Shown here piece by piece: positions 10,029-60,811 of a stretch of DNA of 64,000 nucleotides. Source of the DNA: a virus (Duplodnaviria; Caudoviricetes). A program made the translations under genes and the position numbers. Where the stretch lies: IMG/VR virus record IMGVR_UViG_3300025413_001239, one strand, 5' to 3'. The stretch's first letter is position 1, and each line of letters starts with the position of its first letter. Under the pieces are notes generated by a model. The model was given only the letters and a program-made list of their open reading frames with translations. It had not been told where the DNA came from and ran no database searches.

Positions 10029-10089
10029 AGAATCAGTTCAGCAAATTAAACAATTTTTTTATCTGAAACAAAAAAACAAAATGATTCTG
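10029..10089 (+). ncRNA. CAGCAA-family RNA, copy B (Phe-like loop)
   Basis: AGAATCA-gtt-CAGCAA ... TGATTCT-G; T7/A7 stem with CTGAAAC loop. Confidence 0.6.
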
Positions 10090-10094
10090 AAATT

Positions 10095-10168
10095 TACGTC
10101 ATTGGTGTAATGAGCACGTGCCCCCACATGGGGGGGGTTTAGACCAGTATCAAATCTGGATGACGTAC
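10095..10168 (+). tRNA. atypical tRNA-like gene (possible CAT anticodon)
   Basis: TACGTCA/TGACGTA acceptor, CCAG-tatcaaat-CTGG T arm, C/G-rich anticodon arm lacking U33. Confidence 0.45.
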
Positions 10169-10170
10169 TT

Positions 10171-10207
10171 GCGAGGTGGAGCAGTAGTAGCTCGCTAGGC
10201 CCGTAAA
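10171..10207 (+). pseudogene. 5' half of an initiator-type tRNA
   Basis: GCGAGG-TG-GAGC-AGTAGTA-GCTC-G-CTAGG-CCCGTAA with no 3' half. Confidence 0.5.
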
Positions 10208-10213
10208 ATACAT

Positions 10214-10285
10214 TGCGCTGTAGAGAAGTAGTATCTCGCAAGCCTCATAAGCTTGAAATCATTGGTGCAAATCCAATCGGCGCAT
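10214..10285 (+). tRNA. tRNA-Met(CAT)
   Basis: TGCGCTG/CGGCGCA acceptor; CAAGC-CTCATAA-GCTTG; TGCAAAT T loop. Confidence 0.85.
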
Positions 10286-10290
10286 CATAT

Positions 10291-10376
10291 CGTGGGATGA
10301 TGTAACGGTAACATTTGTGGCTCATAACCACAGTAGGCTTATAACCCTTGTATCAGTTCGATTCTGGTTCCCGCAA
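10291..10376 (+). tRNA. initiator-like tRNA-Met(CAT) with extra anticodon-like hairpin
   Basis: C1:A72 mismatch; TGTGG-CTCATAA-CCACA; variable region GG-CTTATAA-CC. Confidence 0.8.
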
Positions 10377-10383
10377 CAAAAAA

Positions 10384-11265: not shown

Positions 11266-11315
11266 AAAAAAACTTGACAAATTAAAAAACTTTTCGTATA
11301 TTTGCATATATTTAT
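11266..11315 (+). promoter_or_regulatory. conserved promoter of tRNA operon 1
   Basis: TTGACA (11274)-17 bp-TATATTTG (11297), followed by ATATTTATT. Confidence 0.85.
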
Positions 11316-11339
11316 TAATAACGAACAAAAATTATCACA

Positions 11340-11441
11340 ATGATAGCAAACATAAACAATATGATTAATTCGATAAATTGGAGACATAATAGTCGCTCAA
11401 TTAATCAAGTCATGCTATCTAGTGATGTTAATAAAATATAA
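11340..11441 (+). CDS. leader peptide 1, MIANINNMINSINWRHNSRSINQVMLSSDVNKI
   Basis: Manually translated 33 aa ORF between promoter and terminator; 27 of 33 residues match downstream tRNA identities. Confidence 0.8.
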   Translation: MIANINNMINSINWRHNSRSINQVMLSSDVNKI

Positions 11442-11462
11442 CAAATTAAATCACAAATAACG

Positions 11463-11500
11463 AAAAGCCTCTGACTCATACGAATCAGAGGTTTTTTTTT
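11463..11500 (+). terminator. attenuator terminator, tRNA operon 1
   Basis: GCCTCTGA/TCAGAGGT stem plus T9. Confidence 0.9.
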
Positions 11501-11504
11501 ACCC

Positions 11505-11678
11505 ATGTCAGAAGAAATACGATATAAGAAATTAGGTGTTGTAAAACAAAAAGACTTGGATGCTGATTTTGATTCGATATACGATAAGTATAAGAGTATT
11601 GCTTTAGAACTTGGTTTAACAGGTGATTTAAAGTTTGTAAAAGAAAAGGGTAAAGTAATAATTTACATAGCTATTTGA
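11505..11678 (+). CDS. 57 aa hypothetical protein, first gene after attenuator 1
   Basis: Manual translation MSEEIRYKKLGVVKQKDL...IYIAI*. Confidence 0.6.
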   Translation: MSEEIRYKKLGVVKQKDLDADFDSIYDKYKSIALELGLTGDLKFVKEKGKVIIYIAI

Positions 11679-11694
11679 CATTTAGGAAAAACAC

Positions 11695-11795
11695 ACGTAA
11701 ATGACCGAGTGGTCGAAGGTGGTAGGCTCCAACCCTACTGAGATATATAACATTTATGTTAGGTCTCCGCATAGGTTCAAATCCTATTTTACGTG
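11695..11795 (+). tRNA. tRNA-Trp(CCA) with long variable arm
   Basis: GTAGG-CTCCAAC-CCTAC; ATAGG-TTCAAAT-CCTAT; about 30 nt variable hairpin. Confidence 0.8.
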
Positions 11796-12594: not shown

Positions 12595-12666
12595 GGCTTG
12601 GTAGCTCAAAGGTGGAGCATTCGTTTGTTAAACGACAGGTTGAGATATCGTAATTCTCCCAAGCCG
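12595..12666 (+). tRNA. tRNA-Asn(GTT)
   Basis: GGCTTGG/CCAAGCC; TCGT-TTGTTAA-ACGA; non-canonical T loop. Confidence 0.8.
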
Positions 12667-12734
12667 CAAATTAACTTTTTTTGTTAATTATTTGACTTTT
12701 TGTTCGAACTGTGTATATTTATAATAAAGAATAT

Positions 12735-13481
12735 ATGAAAGAAAAAATATTAGAATTAAGGAAAAATGGGTTATCAATAAATGAAATAGTTGAAGAGTTA
12801 AAGTGTGCTAAAAGTACTGTTTCATACCATATAAATAAAAACGGTTTAGGTGGTATTAGAAATAGGTTCTTAAAAGGTGTTAGTGATGAAACGATAAATA
12901 AAATTAAAATTTTTAGATTAGAGTCTAAAACATATAATGAAATTTTAGAGTTAATTGACATAAGTGAGGATAAATTAAAAAAAATTTGTCGATTATTTGA
13001 GATAAATAATAGTACTGGTGGTTTTAAACTTAAAGATGTTGATAAAGATGAGGTTATAAAGTATTATTTATCTGTAAAATCAATACGAAAAACTGCTGAT
13101 TATTTTAATATTAGTAGAGACACAGTTAAAAAATATATACCTGACAATCTTATCTTAATTAAAGATAAAATAACCAAATCACAATCAGTTATTAATTGGC
13201 GTAAAAGAACAAAAATTAAATTAATTGATTATAAAGGTGGTTGTTGTGAAAAGTGTGGTTATAATAAATCTACATCAGCATTACAATTTCATCATTTAAA
13301 CCCTAAAGAAAAGGATTTTCAAATTGGTGGTTCAAGTTATTCATTTGAAAATCTAAAAAAAGAAGTTGATAAATGTATATTAGTATGTGCAAATTGTCAT
13401 ATCGAAATACATGAAGAATTAAGGATTTGTAGCTCAGAGGCAGAGCATTCGTTTGTTAAACGACAGGTCGAGATATCGTAA
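12735..13481 (+). mobile_element. HNH homing endonuclease with HTH domains; C-terminus reads through a duplicated tRNA-Asn
   Basis: CEKCGY...LQFHHLNP...CILVCANCHIEIH. Confidence 0.85.
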
Positions 13482-13495
13482 TTCTCCATTAGCGC
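13430..13495 (+). pseudogene. 5'-truncated duplicate of tRNA-Asn(GTT)
   Basis: GTAGCTC..GAGCATTCGTTTGTTAAACGACAGGTCGAGATATCGTAATTCTCC nearly identical to 12601-12660; acceptor 5' strand missing. Confidence 0.75.
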
Positions 13496-13921: not shown

Positions 13922-14458
13922 ATGGAAAAAGAATTTTTAATTGATTGTATTAATAAAGGGTTAAGTCTAAAAAAAATAAGTAAATTATGTGGTAAAGCAC
14001 CTAGTACAATAACATATTGGTTAAATAAATTTAATTTAAAAACTAATAATTTGTCGTTTAAAGTTAAAGGAAAAATTGATTATAATAATCAAAGATGTTG
14101 CCCAAAATGTAAAATTACTAAAGAATTAAATGAATTTTATAATAGACGTGATAAAATAGGTAGTTCAGTTTATTGTAAAACTTGTACCAATAAACAAGTT
14201 TTAGATAGACAACGGGAACTTAAGCAACAAGCTGTTGATTATAAAGGTGGGTATTGTATAATATGTGGTTATAATAAATGTAATGCGGCGTTAGAATTTC
14301 ATCATTTAGAACCAGATAAAAAAGATTTTAGCATTAGTCAATTAAAAAAATATGCCTTTACTGAAAATATAAAAAAAGAATTAGATAAATGTATTTTGTT
14401 ATGTTCTAATTGTCATAGAGAATTTCATTCTGGTATTTTAATTCTAAGCAAACTATAG
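13922..14458 (+). mobile_element. HNH homing endonuclease
   Basis: CPKC, CKTC, CIICGY..CNAALEFHHLEP...CILLCSNCHREFH. Confidence 0.85.
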
Positions 14459-30398: not shown

Positions 30399-30450
30399 AA
30401 AAAAACTTGACAATTCAAAAACTTTTCGTATATTTGCAGTATATTTATTA
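30399..30450 (+). promoter_or_regulatory. conserved promoter of tRNA operon 2
   Basis: TTGACA (30407)...TATATTTG (30429), then ATATTTATT. Confidence 0.85.
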
Positions 30451-30473
30451 AAAGAGATTAAAAGATAACAAAA

Positions 30474-30554
30474 ATGAGAAATTTAAACAACATATTGGTC
30501 CTTGTGTTATGTGTGCTAGTGTTAACTAGTTCTACTGGGTATTCCATGTTTTAA
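30474..30554 (+). CDS. leader peptide 2, MRNLNNILVLVLCVLVLTSSTGYSMF
   Basis: 26 aa ORF between promoter and terminator; six Leu (TTA, TTG, CTT, CTA) and a Cys. Confidence 0.8.
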   Translation: MRNLNNILVLVLCVLVLTSSTGYSMF

Positions 30555-30578
30555 ATTTAACATTTAAAAATAATTGAG

Positions 30579-30609
30579 AAGCTCAGTCCGAAAGAACTGA
30601 GCTTTTTTT
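30579..30609 (+). terminator. attenuator terminator, tRNA operon 2
   Basis: AAGCTCAGT/ACTGAGCTT stem plus T7, 3 nt before tRNA-Cys. Confidence 0.9.
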
Positions 30610-30611
30610 AT

Positions 30612-33724: not shown

Positions 33725-36043
33725 ATGAAATTATATAAATTATATTCCCAATTACTTAACGAGGATTTTAAATCACAAACTGTTAATTTTATCAGACAAG
33801 GATTTGAACCAGATATTGTTAAGTCATACATTGATAAATTCAAACACATACGAGATAATAAATACAAAGAAATCTTTGATGAAAATTTAAAAGTATCTGT
33901 ACCTTCAAAAGAAAGGTTAAATATTGATGCTTATAAAAATTTCCATGATTTGGAGGTTGTTGTTGATTATGTATCTGGTAAAAGAGCCGTCAATACCAAT
34001 ATGACAAAAGGCGGTAAAGAAAATATTGAAGTTGATGGAACCCCAATTTATGATGATAAAAATTATGAAGTTTATTATGCTGATACACCTAGAGCTTGTA
34101 TAAAGTATAAGGGTAAATTTCCGTATTCTTGGTGTGTTGCTAGGTCGGATTCAGCGAATATGTTTTACACTTATCGTTTTAAACCCTACGAACCAGCTTT
34201 TTATTTCATTAAGAATAAAAAGGAAACTGATAAGGAATTTAGTCTTTGGAACATGGGTAAGAATGTGTTTCAAGGTAAATTTAGTAACCCTTATCACTTT
34301 TTTGTTATTCAAGTTCCAAAAAATGCAAATATTGATGATAACAAAACACAACAGTATATTGTAACATCAGCAAATAATGATGGTGATAAACAAATGAGTT
34401 GGGATGAAATTATTGCTATAAATCCTAATTTAAATTCAATTAAAGAAGTCTTAGTACCTAAACCACTCAGTGAAGGTGAAAGAAAGAAAATTGAAAGATT
34501 TAAAAATGGTATTAATGATAAGGAATTTGCTAAGTTAACCTATGAAGAAAAAAGAGATTATCTGGATATATACCCAACAATTGGTAGACCAATAACATCA
34601 AAACAATTAAAGGAGTTACCAGATGACCTACTAAATTTATATGTTTCTTTTGGTATTGGTTTAGATGATGAAGGTTTTGAATTTATAAAACCTAAAAAAG
34701 ACATTCTTAAAAGATATGCTCAAATAAGCAAAAGAAAACTTGAAGAATACTTAAAAACAGACAATTATCAGAGAAAACAACTTAAGATGATGTATAGTGA
34801 GTTAATTGTTTTATCCGATGAAGACATTAAGAGTTATTTGGAAAGTTTAAAACCTTATGAGATAAAACAATTTATACGTTTAAATGGTGAAGATAAATTT
34901 GAATTATTAGAAAAGCATTTACCTGATAAATTTGGTGCTCAGTTTCAATCTAATAAACAGCTTATTTTAATGGCCCAGTCTGGTGATGAAGAAGCATTAA
35001 ACAAATTAGCTTCATTAATACCAGAAGATATCGAATTTGATTTTTATGGTAAGTACATAGTATTTGAATTTGACAATACTGATAGTGAAAAGTTAAAAAG
35101 AGAATTAGATAACGATACATTGGATTTTTATAGTAGACTAGATTATAACGAATGGAATAGCAGTTATAATAATGATTATTATTTTGATGATGAATCTTCC
35201 CTAAATGATACTTACGATTTTCATATTGAATCGGTGTTAAAAGATGATGAAACACTAAGAGATGATTTACTTAGAATTGGAATCCAACCAGATTTAGAGT
35301 CTGTTAAGGATTTATTAGTAACATATAAAAAAGATTCATCAATTAAAGAATACATGGAAGAAAAGTATTCAGAAGGTAGAGATAATGCTCAAGAAAAAAC
35401 ATGGGAAAAACTTAGGGATGGTATAAAATCAATAGCTTATATTGATGATTATCGTAATTATAGTGTTTATATTAATGTTGCTTCTTTTGTATTTTACTTG
35501 AACGATAATGAATTTTTAACATCGGATATTGATAATTTTATTACAAAAATGGCATATTTACTTGAAAATATAATGGAGGATAACGACCAAATTAGTTATG
35601 TTGAAAGCATGTATGATGAGGTAAATGAAGGTGGTTATGATTTTACCGTTGGTAATGAAGTAAATGAAAGAGTTAAAAGTGAGATTCAAGATGCCATATA
35701 TGAATTTACATCTCAAGATGATGAAGATGAAACAGATTATGCGAATAATTTAGATTCATCAAAAATTCATAAACTTAAAGGTGAGGTTATTAAATTATTA
35801 AATGATACACTTCGTAATCTAGGTCAATCAGAAACTGCGTCAACAATTGAAAATGACATTGTAAGAATTGATATTGATAGACAAAGATTCCATTTAGATG
35901 GTAAAGTATTTGTTAGTATAACTGACAAACAAAATAATAAAAAACATGATGGTTATGTTTATATAAAAGACTTACCAACTTACTTTAAAAATTATAAATT
36001 GTTTGAAACAATACAAAGAATAAAATCAATAATTAAGTATTAA
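33725..36043 (+). CDS. large hypothetical protein (772 aa), possible virion-packaged protein
   Basis: N-terminal ...LLNE motif, ATATTTAT upstream, YSWC motif, acidic C-half. Confidence 0.8.
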   Translation: MKLYKLYSQLLNEDFKSQTVNFIRQGFEPDIVKSYIDKFKHIRDNKYKEIFDENLKVSVPSKERLNIDAYKNFHDLEVVVDYVSGKRAVNTNMTKGGKENIEVDGTPIYDDKNYEVYYADTPRACIKYKGKFPYSWCVARSDSANMFYTYRFKPYEPAFYFIKNKKETDKEFSLWNMGKNVFQGKFSNPYHFFVIQVPKNANIDDNKTQQYIVTSANNDGDKQMSWDEIIAINPNLNSIKEVLVPKPLSEGERKKIERFKNGINDKEFAKLTYEEKRDYLDIYPTIGRPITSKQLKELPDDLLNLYVSFGIGLDDEGFEFIKPKKDILKRYAQISKRKLEEYLKTDNYQRKQLKMMYSELIVLSDEDIKSYLESLKPYEIKQFIRLNGEDKFELLEKHLPDKFGAQFQSNKQLILMAQSGDEEALNKLASLIPEDIEFDFYGKYIVFEFDNTDSEKLKRELDNDTLDFYSRLDYNEWNSSYNNDYYFDDESSLNDTYDFHIESVLKDDETLRDDLLRIGIQPDLESVKDLLVTYKKDSSIKEYMEEKYSEGRDNAQEKTWEKLRDGIKSIAYIDDYRNYSVYINVASFVFYLNDNEFLTSDIDNFITKMAYLLENIMEDNDQISYVESMYDEVNEGGYDFTVGNEVNERVKSEIQDAIYEFTSQDDEDETDYANNLDSSKIHKLKGEVIKLLNDTLRNLGQSETASTIENDIVRIDIDRQRFHLDGKVFVSITDKQNNKKHDGYVYIKDLPTYFKNYKLFETIQRIKSIIKY

Positions 36044-36091
36044 AACTAGTTCTTAAAGTCACTAAAAAAAAAATTTTTTAAAAATAATTCA

Positions 36092-36142
36092 AAAAAAACT
36101 TGACAATTCAAAAACTTTTCGTATATTTGCATATATTTATTA
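36092..36142 (+). promoter_or_regulatory. conserved promoter of tRNA operon 3
   Basis: TTGACA (36100)...TATATTTG (36122), then ATATTTATT. Confidence 0.85.
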
Positions 36143-36165
36143 ACAACAAGTAACAATTAAAAGAT

Positions 36166-36264
36166 ATGAAAAAGGCATATACATATTATCAACCGAAAAC
36201 GCAAGGGGGCAAAACTCCTAATAGGCTGGGTGTATCTTTTTCTGATGAAGATGATTGTAAGTAA
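36166..36264 (+). CDS. leader peptide 3, MKKAYTYYQPKTQGGKTPNRLGVSFSDEDDCK
   Basis: 32 aa ORF between promoter and terminator; residues 5-18 are only Y/T/Q/P/G/K. Confidence 0.8.
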   Translation: MKKAYTYYQPKTQGGKTPNRLGVSFSDEDDCK

Positions 36265-36284
36265 ACAATTAGTAAGATATAAGT

Positions 36285-36321
36285 AAACCCCAGTCTGATG
36301 AAAATTCAAACTGGGGTTTTT
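36285..36321 (+). terminator. attenuator terminator, tRNA operon 3
   Basis: AAACCCCAGT/ACTGGGGTTT stem plus T tract, 7 nt before tRNA-Pro. Confidence 0.9.
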
Positions 36322-36327
36322 AATTTT

Positions 36328-36402
36328 CGGGAAGTTCCACAGATGGCTATATGGGCTTGTTTTGGAGACAAGTGTTCGCTCGTTCGAATCGAGTTTTCCC
36401 GA
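36328..36402 (+). tRNA. tRNA-Pro(TGG)
   Basis: CGGGAAG/TTTCCCG; CTTGT-TTTGGAG-ACAAG. Confidence 0.85.
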
Positions 36403-36415
36403 CACAGATTGGTTG

Positions 36416-36448
36416 GTACCGTAGACAGCAAAAATAAGGAACGGTATA
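36416..36448 (+). ncRNA. possible minimal CAGCAA-family hairpin, copy F
   Basis: GTACCGT-aga-CAGCAA ... ACGGTAT; same spacing as the other copies. Confidence 0.35.
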
Positions 36449-36451
36449 AAA

Positions 36452-36539
36452 CTAAGTGTGTAGTCAATCGAAGACGACTCCCTTTGGAGCGGAGAATAGC
36501 TGTAAAAGGCTTATGCAGGTTCGAGCCCTGTCACTTAGA
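36452..36539 (+). tRNA. tRNA-Pro(TGG)-like with Tyr-like hairpin in the variable arm
   Basis: CTAAGTG/CACTTAG; CTCC-c-TTTGGAG-c-GGAG; variable arm contains CTGTAAA; CAGG-TTCGAGC-CCTG. Confidence 0.65.
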
Positions 36540-36546
36540 CTAAAAT

Positions 36547-36618
36547 TGGGTTGTGGTGTAATGGTAACTACGTGTGGTTTTGGTCCACAAGTTTGGGGTT
36601 CGAGTCCCTACAACCCAA
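36547..36618 (+). tRNA. tRNA-Gln(TTG)
   Basis: TGGGTTG/CAACCCA; TGTGG-TTTTGGT-CCACA. Confidence 0.9.
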
Positions 36619-36703
36619 CAAAGTAAAGAAGTAATTGGGTTAGCTGTTTTCCGTGGCTGGTCTGATGAAGGTTAAGTCCTTATGATTAAATAACGGATAA
36701 ATT

Positions 36704-36775
36704 GGGATAGCCAGCAGGGTTCTGAAGACAGTCTGTAAAACTGAACTTCGTGTGTTTCGAGTACACCCTATCCCA
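36704..36775 (+). tRNA. tRNA-Tyr(GTA), short variable loop, atypical D arm
   Basis: GGGATAG/CTATCCC; CAGT-CTGTAAA-ACTG. Confidence 0.7.
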
Positions 36776-36780
36776 CATTT

Positions 36781-36862
36781 GGGTCAGTCGCATAGAGGCA
36801 ATTGCCGCGGACTGTAAATCCGCTCTCTTCGGAGTTCACAGGTTCGAGTCCTGTTTGGCCCA
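36781..36862 (+). tRNA. tRNA-Tyr(GTA)
   Basis: GCGGA-CTGTAAA-TCCGC; type II. Confidence 0.9.
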
Positions 36863-36870
36863 CAAAAAAT

Positions 36871-36941
36871 GCCTCCAAAGCATATATGGTGATGTACCTG
36901 ACTTGTAATCAGGGAAGTTGATTCGAGTTCAACTGGAGGCT
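36871..36941 (+). tRNA. tRNA-Thr(TGT)
   Basis: GCCTCCA/TGGAGGC; CCTGA-CTTGTAA-TCAGG. Confidence 0.9.
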
Positions 36942-36962
36942 CAAGAGTCTTATATAAAAAAT

Positions 36963-37034
36963 GCGGATATAGCACAGTGGTTAGTGTTGGGGTCTTCCAA
37001 ACCTCAGACGTCAGTTCGAATCTGACTATCCGCT
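36963..37034 (+). tRNA. tRNA-Gly(TCC)
   Basis: GCGGATA/TATCCGC; GGGGT-CTTCCAA-ACCTC. Confidence 0.9.
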
Positions 37035-37193
37035 CATTGGCTAATTTATTTTATAAAATAAATTTGTTTTGATTATGGAAAAAAATTGACTTTTATTGTA
37101 TTTATATGTATATTTGTGACGTAAAAAAGTTTTATAAATAGTGCTTTTGAAATATCTAAGCCACACATAACAAATAAAAATTAATTAATTAAA

Positions 37194-37466
37194 ATGGATT
37201 TAAAGTCTGGTATCAGAAATCCCGAACAGTTACGGGTTGCAATTGAGATTGCTAAGTTAAATAATGAATTTTATTCTGATGCTGTATGGGCAATCCATAA
37301 GTATAAGTGGTATAATTGGTATCAGAATCTGCACATTAAAGAAAATAGTCTAGAGGATATTGAGAATACTAAAATCTTTAATCAATTAGAAACTGAATAT
37401 CCGAGTATTCATGTGGATATTGAAAAAAATATTGATTATGAGATTATTAAAGCTAGTGCAAATTAA
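37194..37466 (+). CDS. hypothetical protein
   Basis: 90 aa ORF followed by a terminator at 37477-37504. Confidence 0.7.
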   Translation: MDLKSGIRNPEQLRVAIEIAKLNNEFYSDAVWAIHKYKWYNWYQNLHIKENSLEDIENTKIFNQLETEYPSIHVDIEKNIDYEIIKASAN

Positions 37467-37569
37467 TTTAAGATTTAAAAAGACGTAGAAATACGTCTTT
37501 TTTTATTTAGTTGAGATTCAAAAAAAAAAAATATTTGTAAGTTTAAATTTAATTTTGTATATTTGCACT

Positions 37570-37818
37570 ATGACAAACACAATACTACTTGATTTAAATA
37601 CTGAGAGAGACCCAATGATTCTATTCAGTAAACCTATGGAGCAGGACCCCCCAACTAATAGGGAAGAGATGCATAAGATGATAATTGAAGACATTGCATT
37701 TTTATCTGAAGCATTAACGGTTATGATTAAACGTGCTGATGAAAATGGTTATTCCAATAAAGAAGCTCTTATTGAAGCTTCAATAAAAACACTTAATAGT
37801 CTTTTAATAGAAAATTAA
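37570..37818 (+). CDS. hypothetical protein
   Basis: ATG just after TATATTTG. Confidence 0.7.
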   Translation: MTNTILLDLNTERDPMILFSKPMEQDPPTNREEMHKMIIEDIAFLSEALTVMIKRADENGYSNKEALIEASIKTLNSLLIEN

Positions 37819-37864
37819 TAATAAAGTTGTAACGATAGAAATTAATTCGTATATTTGCATCGTA

Positions 37865-38173
37865 ATGAGAAAAAGACCTTCAGATACAAATTCAGAAAAA
37901 CCGAAAGCACCAGTTAAAAAACAAGAAAGTGCTCTTGGTAAGTTACCACCAAAAAAGATGGTCATAACTAAGAATGGTATTGAAGAGGTTGATATTAAAT
38001 TGGATACAACTAGAAAATCTGACAATAAAAAATACGTAAAGGTTTTAGCTACTGAGACAAGCTTAGTATTCAAGGAAATCGGTGATAGGGTAGCTAAAAA
38101 AGAATTAAAGTGGTCGTATTATACGACTGAAAACAATATTGGTGTACATTATTATCAAATATTAAACGATTAA
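37865..38173 (+). CDS. hypothetical protein
   Basis: ATG just after TATATTTG. Confidence 0.7.
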   Translation: MRKRPSDTNSEKPKAPVKKQESALGKLPPKKMVITKNGIEEVDIKLDTTRKSDNKKYVKVLATETSLVFKEIGDRVAKKELKWSYYTTENNIGVHYYQILND

Positions 38174-60621: not shown

Positions 60622-60711
60622 ATGGAGATTAATAACGAATTATTTGAGAAAGCCCTTATATTTGCAGCGAAAAAGCATAAGGGTCAAAAAAGATTTGCAA
60701 GTTTAAAATAA
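60622..60711 (+). pseudogene. N-terminal stump of HD-domain (p)ppGpp hydrolase-like gene
   Basis: MEINNELFEKALIFAAKKHKGQKR then a premature end; matches the A..FA...H.GQ.R start of SpoT/Mesh1 HD domains. Confidence 0.55.
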
Positions 60712-60735
60712 AAGTTGTATATTTGCATTTCTTAT

Positions 60736-60807
60736 GGTGAGGTAGCTCAGTAGTAGAGCACAATTTTGAAAAGATTGGTGTCGGTAGTGCGAATCTGCCC
60801 CTCACCA
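60736..60807 (+). tRNA. tRNA-Phe(GAA)
   Basis: GGTGAGG/CCTCACC; CAATT-TTGAAAA-GATTG; own TATATTTG promoter. Confidence 0.85.
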
Positions 60808-60811
60808 CACG

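Follow-up and report, generated by a model that had tools for sequence, protein, structure and literature searches.

A probable leader-peptide attenuator ahead of a tRNA gene array in phage DNA

Introduction

Several enterobacterial operons are controlled by leaders whose regulatory codons sample more than one amino acid. The thr leader carries Thr and Ile codons, and the leaders of ilvGMEDA and ilvBN carry Ile, Leu and Val codons; trpL, hisL, leuL and pheL are further enterobacterial leaders. In the pheST attenuator of E. coli, a leader with Phe codons controls phenylalanyl-tRNA synthetase. T-box riboswitches (RF00230) recognize a single uncharged tRNA by direct binding, using a specifier codon and the T-box sequence, and require no ribosome. 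The role of the tRNA genes carried by phages is debated, and codon-usage matching, compensation for the decay of host tRNAs and evasion of anticodon nucleases have all been proposed. The general theory of leader-peptide attenuation has been set out (PMC1183508), and the supply of phage tRNAs is reported to be important during attack on the tRNAs of the host ('Evasion of antiviral bacterial immunity by phage tRNAs', PMC11555353). The latter paper, as far as its abstract goes, concerns what phage tRNAs do rather than the control of their transcription, and the abstract names no leader or attenuator. We found no published description of leader-peptide control of tRNA genes in the full-text literature, a scope outside which most subscription journals lie.

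Here, we describe a genomic unit (unit C) in a 64,000-nucleotide stretch of Caudoviricetes DNA (IMG/VR record IMGVR_UViG_3300025413_001239), the whole of which is referred to as the window; it is AT-rich phage DNA in which ARAGORN finds 21 tRNA genes. The unit is probably a leader-peptide transcription attenuator that gates a phage tRNA array, such that read-through induced by ribosome stalling would act as feedback on tRNA supply. Like the multivalent enterobacterial leaders, it comprises a short leader ORF with regulatory codons for several amino acids, an intrinsic terminator and a predicted pairing that competes for the terminator 5' arm, and the proposed signal is likewise the speed of the ribosome on the regulatory codons. 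Unlike them, it would regulate tRNA genes rather than biosynthetic enzymes, so that the molecules sensed would be its own products or their host equivalents. A single phage leader would sample as many as seven amino acids, synonymous codons would report on different isoacceptors, and the amino-acid alphabet is divided among several leaders; moreover, the element is viral, has a Bacteroidota-type promoter and lacks a Shine-Dalgarno sequence. With pheST it shares attenuation acting on the translation apparatus rather than on biosynthesis, whereas pheST controls a protein gene in response to one amino acid and the phage unit a tRNA gene array. As in T-box riboswitches, tRNA status would set the choice between terminator and antiterminator ahead of translation-related genes, but the phage element, unlike a T-box, has an ORF with many codons. 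T-box identity was ruled out, as Rfam returned no T-box match at either the gathering or the E <= 1 threshold; the only model that Rfam matched to the leader was L10_leader, below threshold (23.7 bits versus a gathering threshold of 44) and largely on account of the terminator hairpin.

Results

Layout of the promoter, leader and terminator

The elements of unit C lie in the following order.

36100-36129, plus strand: promoter, with TTGACA at 36100-36105 and the Bacteroidota-type -7 box TATATTTG at 36122-36129
36166-36264, plus strand: leader ORF MKKAYTYYQPKTQGGKTPNRLGVSFSDEDDCK, 32 codons, with orthologues in L002/L016, L003/L028, L010/L032, L017, L018, L029 and L062
36178-36219, plus strand: sensing codons, TAT ACA TAT TAT CAA CCG AAA ACG CAA GGG GGC AAA ACT CCT = Y T Y Y Q P K T Q G G K T P
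36204-36219, plus strand: small hairpin within the sensing region, AGGGG / CUCCU
36221-36234, plus strand: region 2, the putative antiterminator 5' strand AUAGGCUGGGUGUA, inside the ORF and directly 3' of the sensing codons
36285-36327, plus strand: intrinsic terminator, with 5' arm 36285-36298 (region 3), loop 36299-36305, 3' arm 36306-36319 (region 4) and a U-run to 36327

The promoters of the window are of the Bacteroidota type, TTG ... TAnnTTTG, and take the form TATATTTGCA. A 33-nt promoter word is present in identical copies at 36099 and 30406 and in near-identical copies at about 9765 and 11272, and the same word precedes tRNA arrays in the related contigs L001-L034. When the promoter was used as a blastn query, the only phages matched were those of Bacteroides, Prevotella, Riemerella, Chryseobacterium and similar hosts. 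The 5' UTR of unit C is A/T-rich and about 30 nt long.

The terminator consists of a GC-rich stem of 14 pairs (36285-36319) followed by UUUUUAAUUUU, and it is present in the minimum free energy (MFE) fold of the full-length leader. Its end at 36327 adjoins the start of the first tRNA gene, tRNA-Pro, at 36328, and thus there is no room for a second promoter between them; because the terminator abuts the first tRNA, the array would be transcribed only through terminator read-through. The spacer between the leader stop codon and the terminator stem is 23 nt in unit C, and lies between 23 and 31 nt in every unit of all four leader types described below. The small inner hairpin is kept at the same place in L017/L018 with another sequence (GGCG / CGCC), and may serve as an RNA polymerase pause hairpin.

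Relatives of the unit

Relatives were retrieved by the promoter word and comprise 7 IMG/VR contigs, 27 metagenome stretches and further IMG/VR contigs. Among deposited phages the window has no close relative: blastn of INPHARED with 35900-37200, and with the promoter plus leader, yielded matches to tRNAs or to the promoter only and no related element. The 772-aa ORF upstream of the unit (33725-36043) had no match in IMG/VR, three neighbouring ORFs had none in PHROGs, and a degenerate back-translated pattern of the leader recovered L002 and L003 only.

The composition of the leader matches its tRNA array

Downstream of the terminator, ARAGORN assigns tRNAs for Pro, Pro, Gln, Tyr, Thr and Gly (36328-37035). 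The genes of array C, including one that is Tyr-like, are as follows.

36328-36403, plus strand: tRNA-Pro(tgg)
36452-36540, plus strand: an odd tRNA of 89 nt, whose variable arm is long and which scores only 20.9 bits with the Rfam tRNA model
36547-36619, plus strand: tRNA-Gln(ttg)
36703-36777, plus strand: tRNA-Tyr-like gene with a non-canonical cloverleaf and the anticodon loop CUGUAAA, missed by ARAGORN and Rfam
36781-36863, plus strand: tRNA-Tyr(gta)
36871-36942, plus strand: tRNA-Thr(tgt)
36963-37035, plus strand: tRNA-Gly(tcc)

A previous reading of the letters alone (the sequence-only reading) had counted 12 of 14 consecutive leader codons as specifying the five amino acids of the array, the other two being Lys. 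This count is correct for codons 5-18 (36178-36219; Tyr, Thr, Gln, Pro and Gly), as is the total of five Lys codons in the ORF 36166-36264. With the residue frequencies of the 47 long ORFs in the window as background, the probability of at least 12 of 14 residues falling in {P,Q,Y,T,G} is p = 3e-7, or 4e-6 if any 14-residue window of the peptide is allowed; when Lys is included, all 14 residues belong to the set (p = 8e-8). Across the three leaders of the window (units A, B and C), composition p values range from about 1e-6 to 1e-9, and a cross table shows each leader to be enriched solely in its own set. The codon match of leader C to its array is not due to chance.

In relatives with full arrays (L016, L003, L010, L022), 18/19 to 20/21 of the set codons are decodable by anticodons of the array under plain wobble rules, and 9/10 of the distinct anticodons have a codon in the leader. 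The leaders contain synonymous codons that call for separate isoacceptors: in L016, Gly-tcc serves GGG and Gly-gcc serves GGC, Thr-tgt serves ACA/ACG and Thr-ggt serves ACT, and Lys-ttt serves AAA and Lys-ctt serves AAG. Over 30 distinct units the leader frame contains 0 in-frame stops versus 88 and 104 in the other two frames, and the reading frame is therefore maintained.

Lysine codons and the missing part of array C

Array C of the window lacks tRNAs for three classes of leader codon, AAA/AAG, GGC and ACT, which counts against the main reading. The Lys codons had been proposed either to sense tRNA-Lys as the target of PrrC and PARIS or to mark a lost tRNA-Lys, with a search of relatives for tRNA-Lys in this array as the check. 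That search was positive: L003, L016, L017 and L062 carry Lys tRNAs in array C, where the window has none, which fits the loss of tRNA-Lys, and in L003 and L016 no -7 box lies between the Lys tRNAs and the tRNAs that precede them. Since relatives carry Lys tRNAs in the array, PrrC and PARIS are not needed to explain the Lys codons, and that proposal was set aside as unnecessary. The 160-kb relative G001 is syntenic with the window, and comparison of window positions 37036-37938 with 27.7-32.6 kb of G001 places about 4 kb of the distal part of array C in G001 that is missing from the window. The missing segment holds three Lys tRNAs, a CUA suppressor, Gly-tcc, Gly-gcc and Thr-ggt, and the genes that flank it are common to both genomes at ~71-73% identity. 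The AAA, GGC and ACT codons of the leader are thus best explained as relics of tRNAs that were lost from the array or are kept elsewhere, or as sensors for them.

Two genes of the array are irregular. The 89-nt tRNA at 36452-36540 is called Pro(tgg) by ARAGORN in the window and in L002, and its counterpart in L003 is called Ser(gga); if it is a tRNA-Ser, it falls outside the amino-acid set of leader C. The tRNA-Tyr-like gene is conserved, being identical in the relative L016, and the 80 nt ahead of it (36620-36702) hold a conserved hairpin.

Sister units and four leader types

The window contains two further units of the same design.

30406-30611, plus strand: sister unit B, with promoter, leader MRNLNNILVLVLCVLVLTSSTGYSMF (30474-30554) and terminator, followed by Cys and three Leu tRNAs
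11272-11500, plus strand: sister unit A, with promoter, leader MIANINNMINSINWRHNSRSINQVMLSSDVNKI (11340-11441) and terminator, followed by a tRNA array

Array A encodes tRNAs for Trp, Ser, His, Ile, Met, Asn, Arg, Arg and Ser, and 20 of 21 residues of the leader A core, MIANINNMINSINWRHNSRSIN..., belong to its own set (p = 9e-10). The leader B core, LVLVLCVLVL, falls wholly within {L,V,C} (10/10, p = 7e-9); array B of the window has no Val tRNA, and the Val codons of its leader are explained by relatives, whose type B arrays do hold Val tRNAs.

Besides units A, B and C, some 35 units from related metagenomic phage contigs with this Bacteroidota-type promoter follow the design, and the leaders are of four types. 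The type A set is I, N, M, S, W, R and H; type B is L, V and C; type C is Y, T, Q, P, K and G; and type D, seen in relatives only, is F, D, A and E, exactly the residues absent from the other three. The four sets do not overlap and jointly make up all 20 amino acids. Type D leaders, for example MRTLTNIFDFAFFAAEEDYS... and MRNINNNFDFNFEAEAD..., are followed by Phe, Glu, Asp and Ala tRNAs. A type D leader was found neither in the window nor in the first 80 kb of the syntenic G001, and the division of 20 amino acids among four leaders is therefore a statement about the phage family and not demonstrably about this genome.

In all distinct units of L001-L034 and the window, 214 of 228 array tRNAs fall within the set of their own leader, and 9 belong to another set. 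The off-set tRNAs, which count against the main reading, are Val-cac in type A arrays, a Ser-gga-like tRNA and a CUA suppressor in type C, and Met, Thr, Arg and Ser in type D. Suppressor-type tRNAs occur inside the arrays of relatives (L025/L026 and L003/G001), with CUA in type C and UUA in type D, which hints at stop-codon reassignment or read-through in these phages.

The order of residues diverges among type C leaders (MKKTYTYYQPKTQGGKTP, MRTYNTYQPKQKTQGGKTP, MMTTKTYQTKQYQPKGGTPQGTTGY, MNTYTTYQYKQPQGGTT and MKTYTTYQPKQKPQGGTG), all of which are drawn from T, Y, Q, P, K and G. A codon sensor, in contrast to a functional peptide, would be expected to conserve composition without order.

A predicted antiterminator co-varies with the terminator 5' arm

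The sequence-only reading had also paired GGCTGGGT (36224-36231) with ACCCCAGTC (36287-36295) of the terminator and placed it downstream of the sensing codons, and both the pairing and the position stand. The best duplex that the terminator 5' arm forms with any part of the leader is 36221-36234 x 36286-36298 (-15.8 kcal/mol; z = -2.4, p = 0.024 versus dinucleotide shuffles), and until the 3' arm has been transcribed, region 2 is the MFE partner of the 5' arm. In all type B and type C units, the best antiterminator site lies at nt 56-74 of the ORF, a few codons past the sensing run, with z scores between -1.0 and -4.7. In the type C alignment 86% of cells pair, versus 15-56% with slid partners; within type C alone the co-variation is modest, with two pairs showing double changes among related sequences, which counts against the reading. 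When arms were swapped among 14 distinct type B and C units, the real assignment was equalled in only 4 of 20000 permutations, relatedness inflating such tests somewhat. Examples of compensatory change between region 2 and the arm are AGGCTGGG / CCCAGTCT, GGACTGGGC / GCCTAGTCC, AACTGGGT / ACCCAGTT, TGGACTGGG / CCCAGTTCA, GGCTGGG / CCCAGCC, AGTCAGGT / ACCTGATT and ATGGGT / ACCCAT. Judged from these comparisons, region 2 co-varies with the terminator 5' arm across types B and C. For types A and D, simple duplex tests scored no better than shuffles whether the loop was included or left out; this counts against the main reading, and we claim no antiterminator for these two types.

The sensing region had been suggested to pair alternatively with region 2. 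Such a pairing does appear in MFE folds, but in the window copy it is no better than shuffles (z = -0.15). This 1:2, or anti-antiterminator, helix would involve the invariant ACAUAU together with the Pro codon; folding predicts it in every type C unit, and in L003, L017/18 and L029 it is significant, with z scores of -2.6 to -3.9. RNAalifold recovered the terminator and the small inner hairpin from the type C alignment and did not recover the 1:2 helix, the register of which differs between copies.

In folds of the nascent RNA, the terminator 5' arm pairs with region 2 with a probability of ~0.7-0.8 when the ribosome is placed on early or middle sensing codons, and of ~0 when it is placed on region 2. 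Two points count against the proposed switch. A ribosome at the stop codon of a type C leader leaves region 2 uncovered, and termination without a stall would therefore need the 1:2 helix, steric hindrance or timing; in addition, a ribosome stalled on one of the final three or four sensing codons would itself cover region 2. Equilibrium folding by itself does not settle the switch, since the full-length MFE fold contains the terminator.

Discussion

The sequence features assembled here, a leader ORF with a cluster of regulatory codons, an intrinsic terminator with no promoter beyond it and a putative antiterminator directly 3' of the codons, are those of a leader-peptide attenuator. The sequence-only reading, which had named the unit an attenuator, is supported by the open ORF, the tracking of array by leader composition, the fixed spacing of stop codon and stem, and the finding that region 2 and the terminator arm vary in concert in types B and C. 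We infer that the leader is translated, and likewise the sign of the switch and its physiological trigger.

In the mechanism that we propose, transcription would start at the strong promoter at 36100-36129, and the 32-codon leader would be translated while RNA polymerase advances. With aminoacyl-tRNAs for Tyr, Thr, Gln, Pro, Gly and Lys in ample supply, the ribosome would cross region 2 and reach the stop codon; region 2 would be covered, or would re-pair with the sensing region behind the ribosome, so that the terminator at 36285-36327 forms and the tRNAs stay off. If any of these tRNAs were scarce, the ribosome would stall within 36178-36219 and leave region 2 free to pair with the emerging terminator 5' arm, allowing read-through into the Pro, Gln, Tyr, Thr and Gly genes. 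The outcome would be negative feedback on tRNA supply, with this unit as one of three channels in the window and of four in the wider phage family.

That the match merely reflects chance or the compositional bias of an AT-rich genome, the ORF not being real, is scarcely credible. AT-rich DNA abounds in short ORFs and weak pairings, and leader A is rich in Ile and Asn, residues that such genomes favour; yet the p values of 1e-6 to 1e-9 were calculated against the window's own proteome, the leader A core has no Lys, Glu, Leu, Phe or Tyr, all of which are common in this genome, and both the ORF and the match of codons to tRNAs are conserved over ~35 units. We reject this reading on the composition statistics, the 0 in-frame stops and the 214 of 228 array tRNAs that match. 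Leaders that are small functional peptides, for example a hydrophobic membrane peptide in type B, would account for the likeness of the core LVLVLCVLVL to a membrane helix and for the conservation of C-terminal tails within leader types; the terminator would then simply end the gene, and the tRNAs would arise from constitutive leak-through. We regard this as very improbable, since four unrelated peptides each fit the amino-acid set of the tRNAs downstream, type C keeps its composition and not its order, and the conserved tails, which overlap region 2, vary in step with the terminator. Leak-through is, moreover, hard to square with a strong promoter that faces a strong terminator with promoterless tRNAs beyond it.

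An unlikely reading, although one with a better claim than the two just weighed, keeps the sensor and changes its output or sign, either because efficient translation promotes read-through, giving positive feedback, or because the hairpin is an element of RNA processing or stability through which translation would govern whether the tRNA precursor is cleaved or decays. In its favour are the weak 1:2 helix of the window copy, the lack of a significant antiterminator in types A and D, and the type C ribosome that leaves region 2 uncovered when at the stop codon; the constant distance from stop to stem could also serve another relation between ribosome and hairpin. Against it, the hairpin has the form of a canonical intrinsic terminator, with a GC-rich stem and a U-run. 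A ribosome footprint reaches ~12-15 nt past the A site, and the stop codon lies 23-31 nt from the stem, beyond that reach, so that the ribosome cannot melt the stem. Region 2, finally, is located immediately downstream of the sensing codons and shows co-variation with the 5' arm, as antitermination induced by stalling predicts. Attenuation with read-through upon stalling is accordingly the reading that we prefer.

If attenuation of this kind operates, the phage would gauge translational capacity for each class of codon and top up only what is short. The debate on phage tRNAs would gain a direct test, namely which stress opens which leader, and leader-peptide attenuation, described for amino-acid and synthetase genes, would be extended to RNA genes, to viruses and to Bacteroidota hosts. 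The compact, modular design, in which leader composition matches array composition, could serve as a naturally occurring sensor for the availability of tRNAs and supply an annotation rule by which phage tRNA operons and odd tRNAs are found. We suggest tentatively, as a possibility that may well prove wrong, that the leaders form a multi-channel alarm for tRNA depletion, in which the loss of particular tRNAs to a host defence, for instance an anticodon nuclease, or to phage-induced host shut-off would stall ribosomes on the corresponding leader and open just the block that makes up for the lost species, as an inducible counter-defence. Such an alarm would be a counter-defence that uses the oldest known attenuation logic, with 20 amino acids spread over four sensors.

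Other features of the tRNA regions

A lone tRNA-Phe lies directly behind a Bacteroidota-type promoter at 60686-60808, with no leader and no terminator, whereas in other lineages Phe is part of the leader-controlled type D array. A fourth copy of the tRNA promoter heads the region 9765-10377, which has no long leader ORF, just MVTAT, followed by about 350 nt of structured or tRNA-like RNA and then two tRNA-Met genes; the same layout is found in L005, L006 and L031.

Between the terminator of leader A and tRNA-Trp lies a 57-aa ORF (11505-11678; MSEEIRYKKLG...) that is kept in all type A relatives, has no PHROG match and would be co-regulated with the tRNAs; as a query it yielded no contigs beyond those already collected. 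It is followed by a 101-nt gene (11695-11795) that was found by Rfam only (53.4 bits) and has, by eye, a tRNA-Trp-type CCA anticodon loop, with ~28 nt extra after the anticodon arm; relatives have a normal 73-nt tRNA-Trp there. Further into array A are two paralogous ORFs (12736-13420 and 13923-14450) with HNH-type Cys/His motifs discerned by eye, which look like homing-endonuclease insertions. The first is followed by a partial tRNA-Asn copy (13423-13486) that is 85% identical to 12595-12667.
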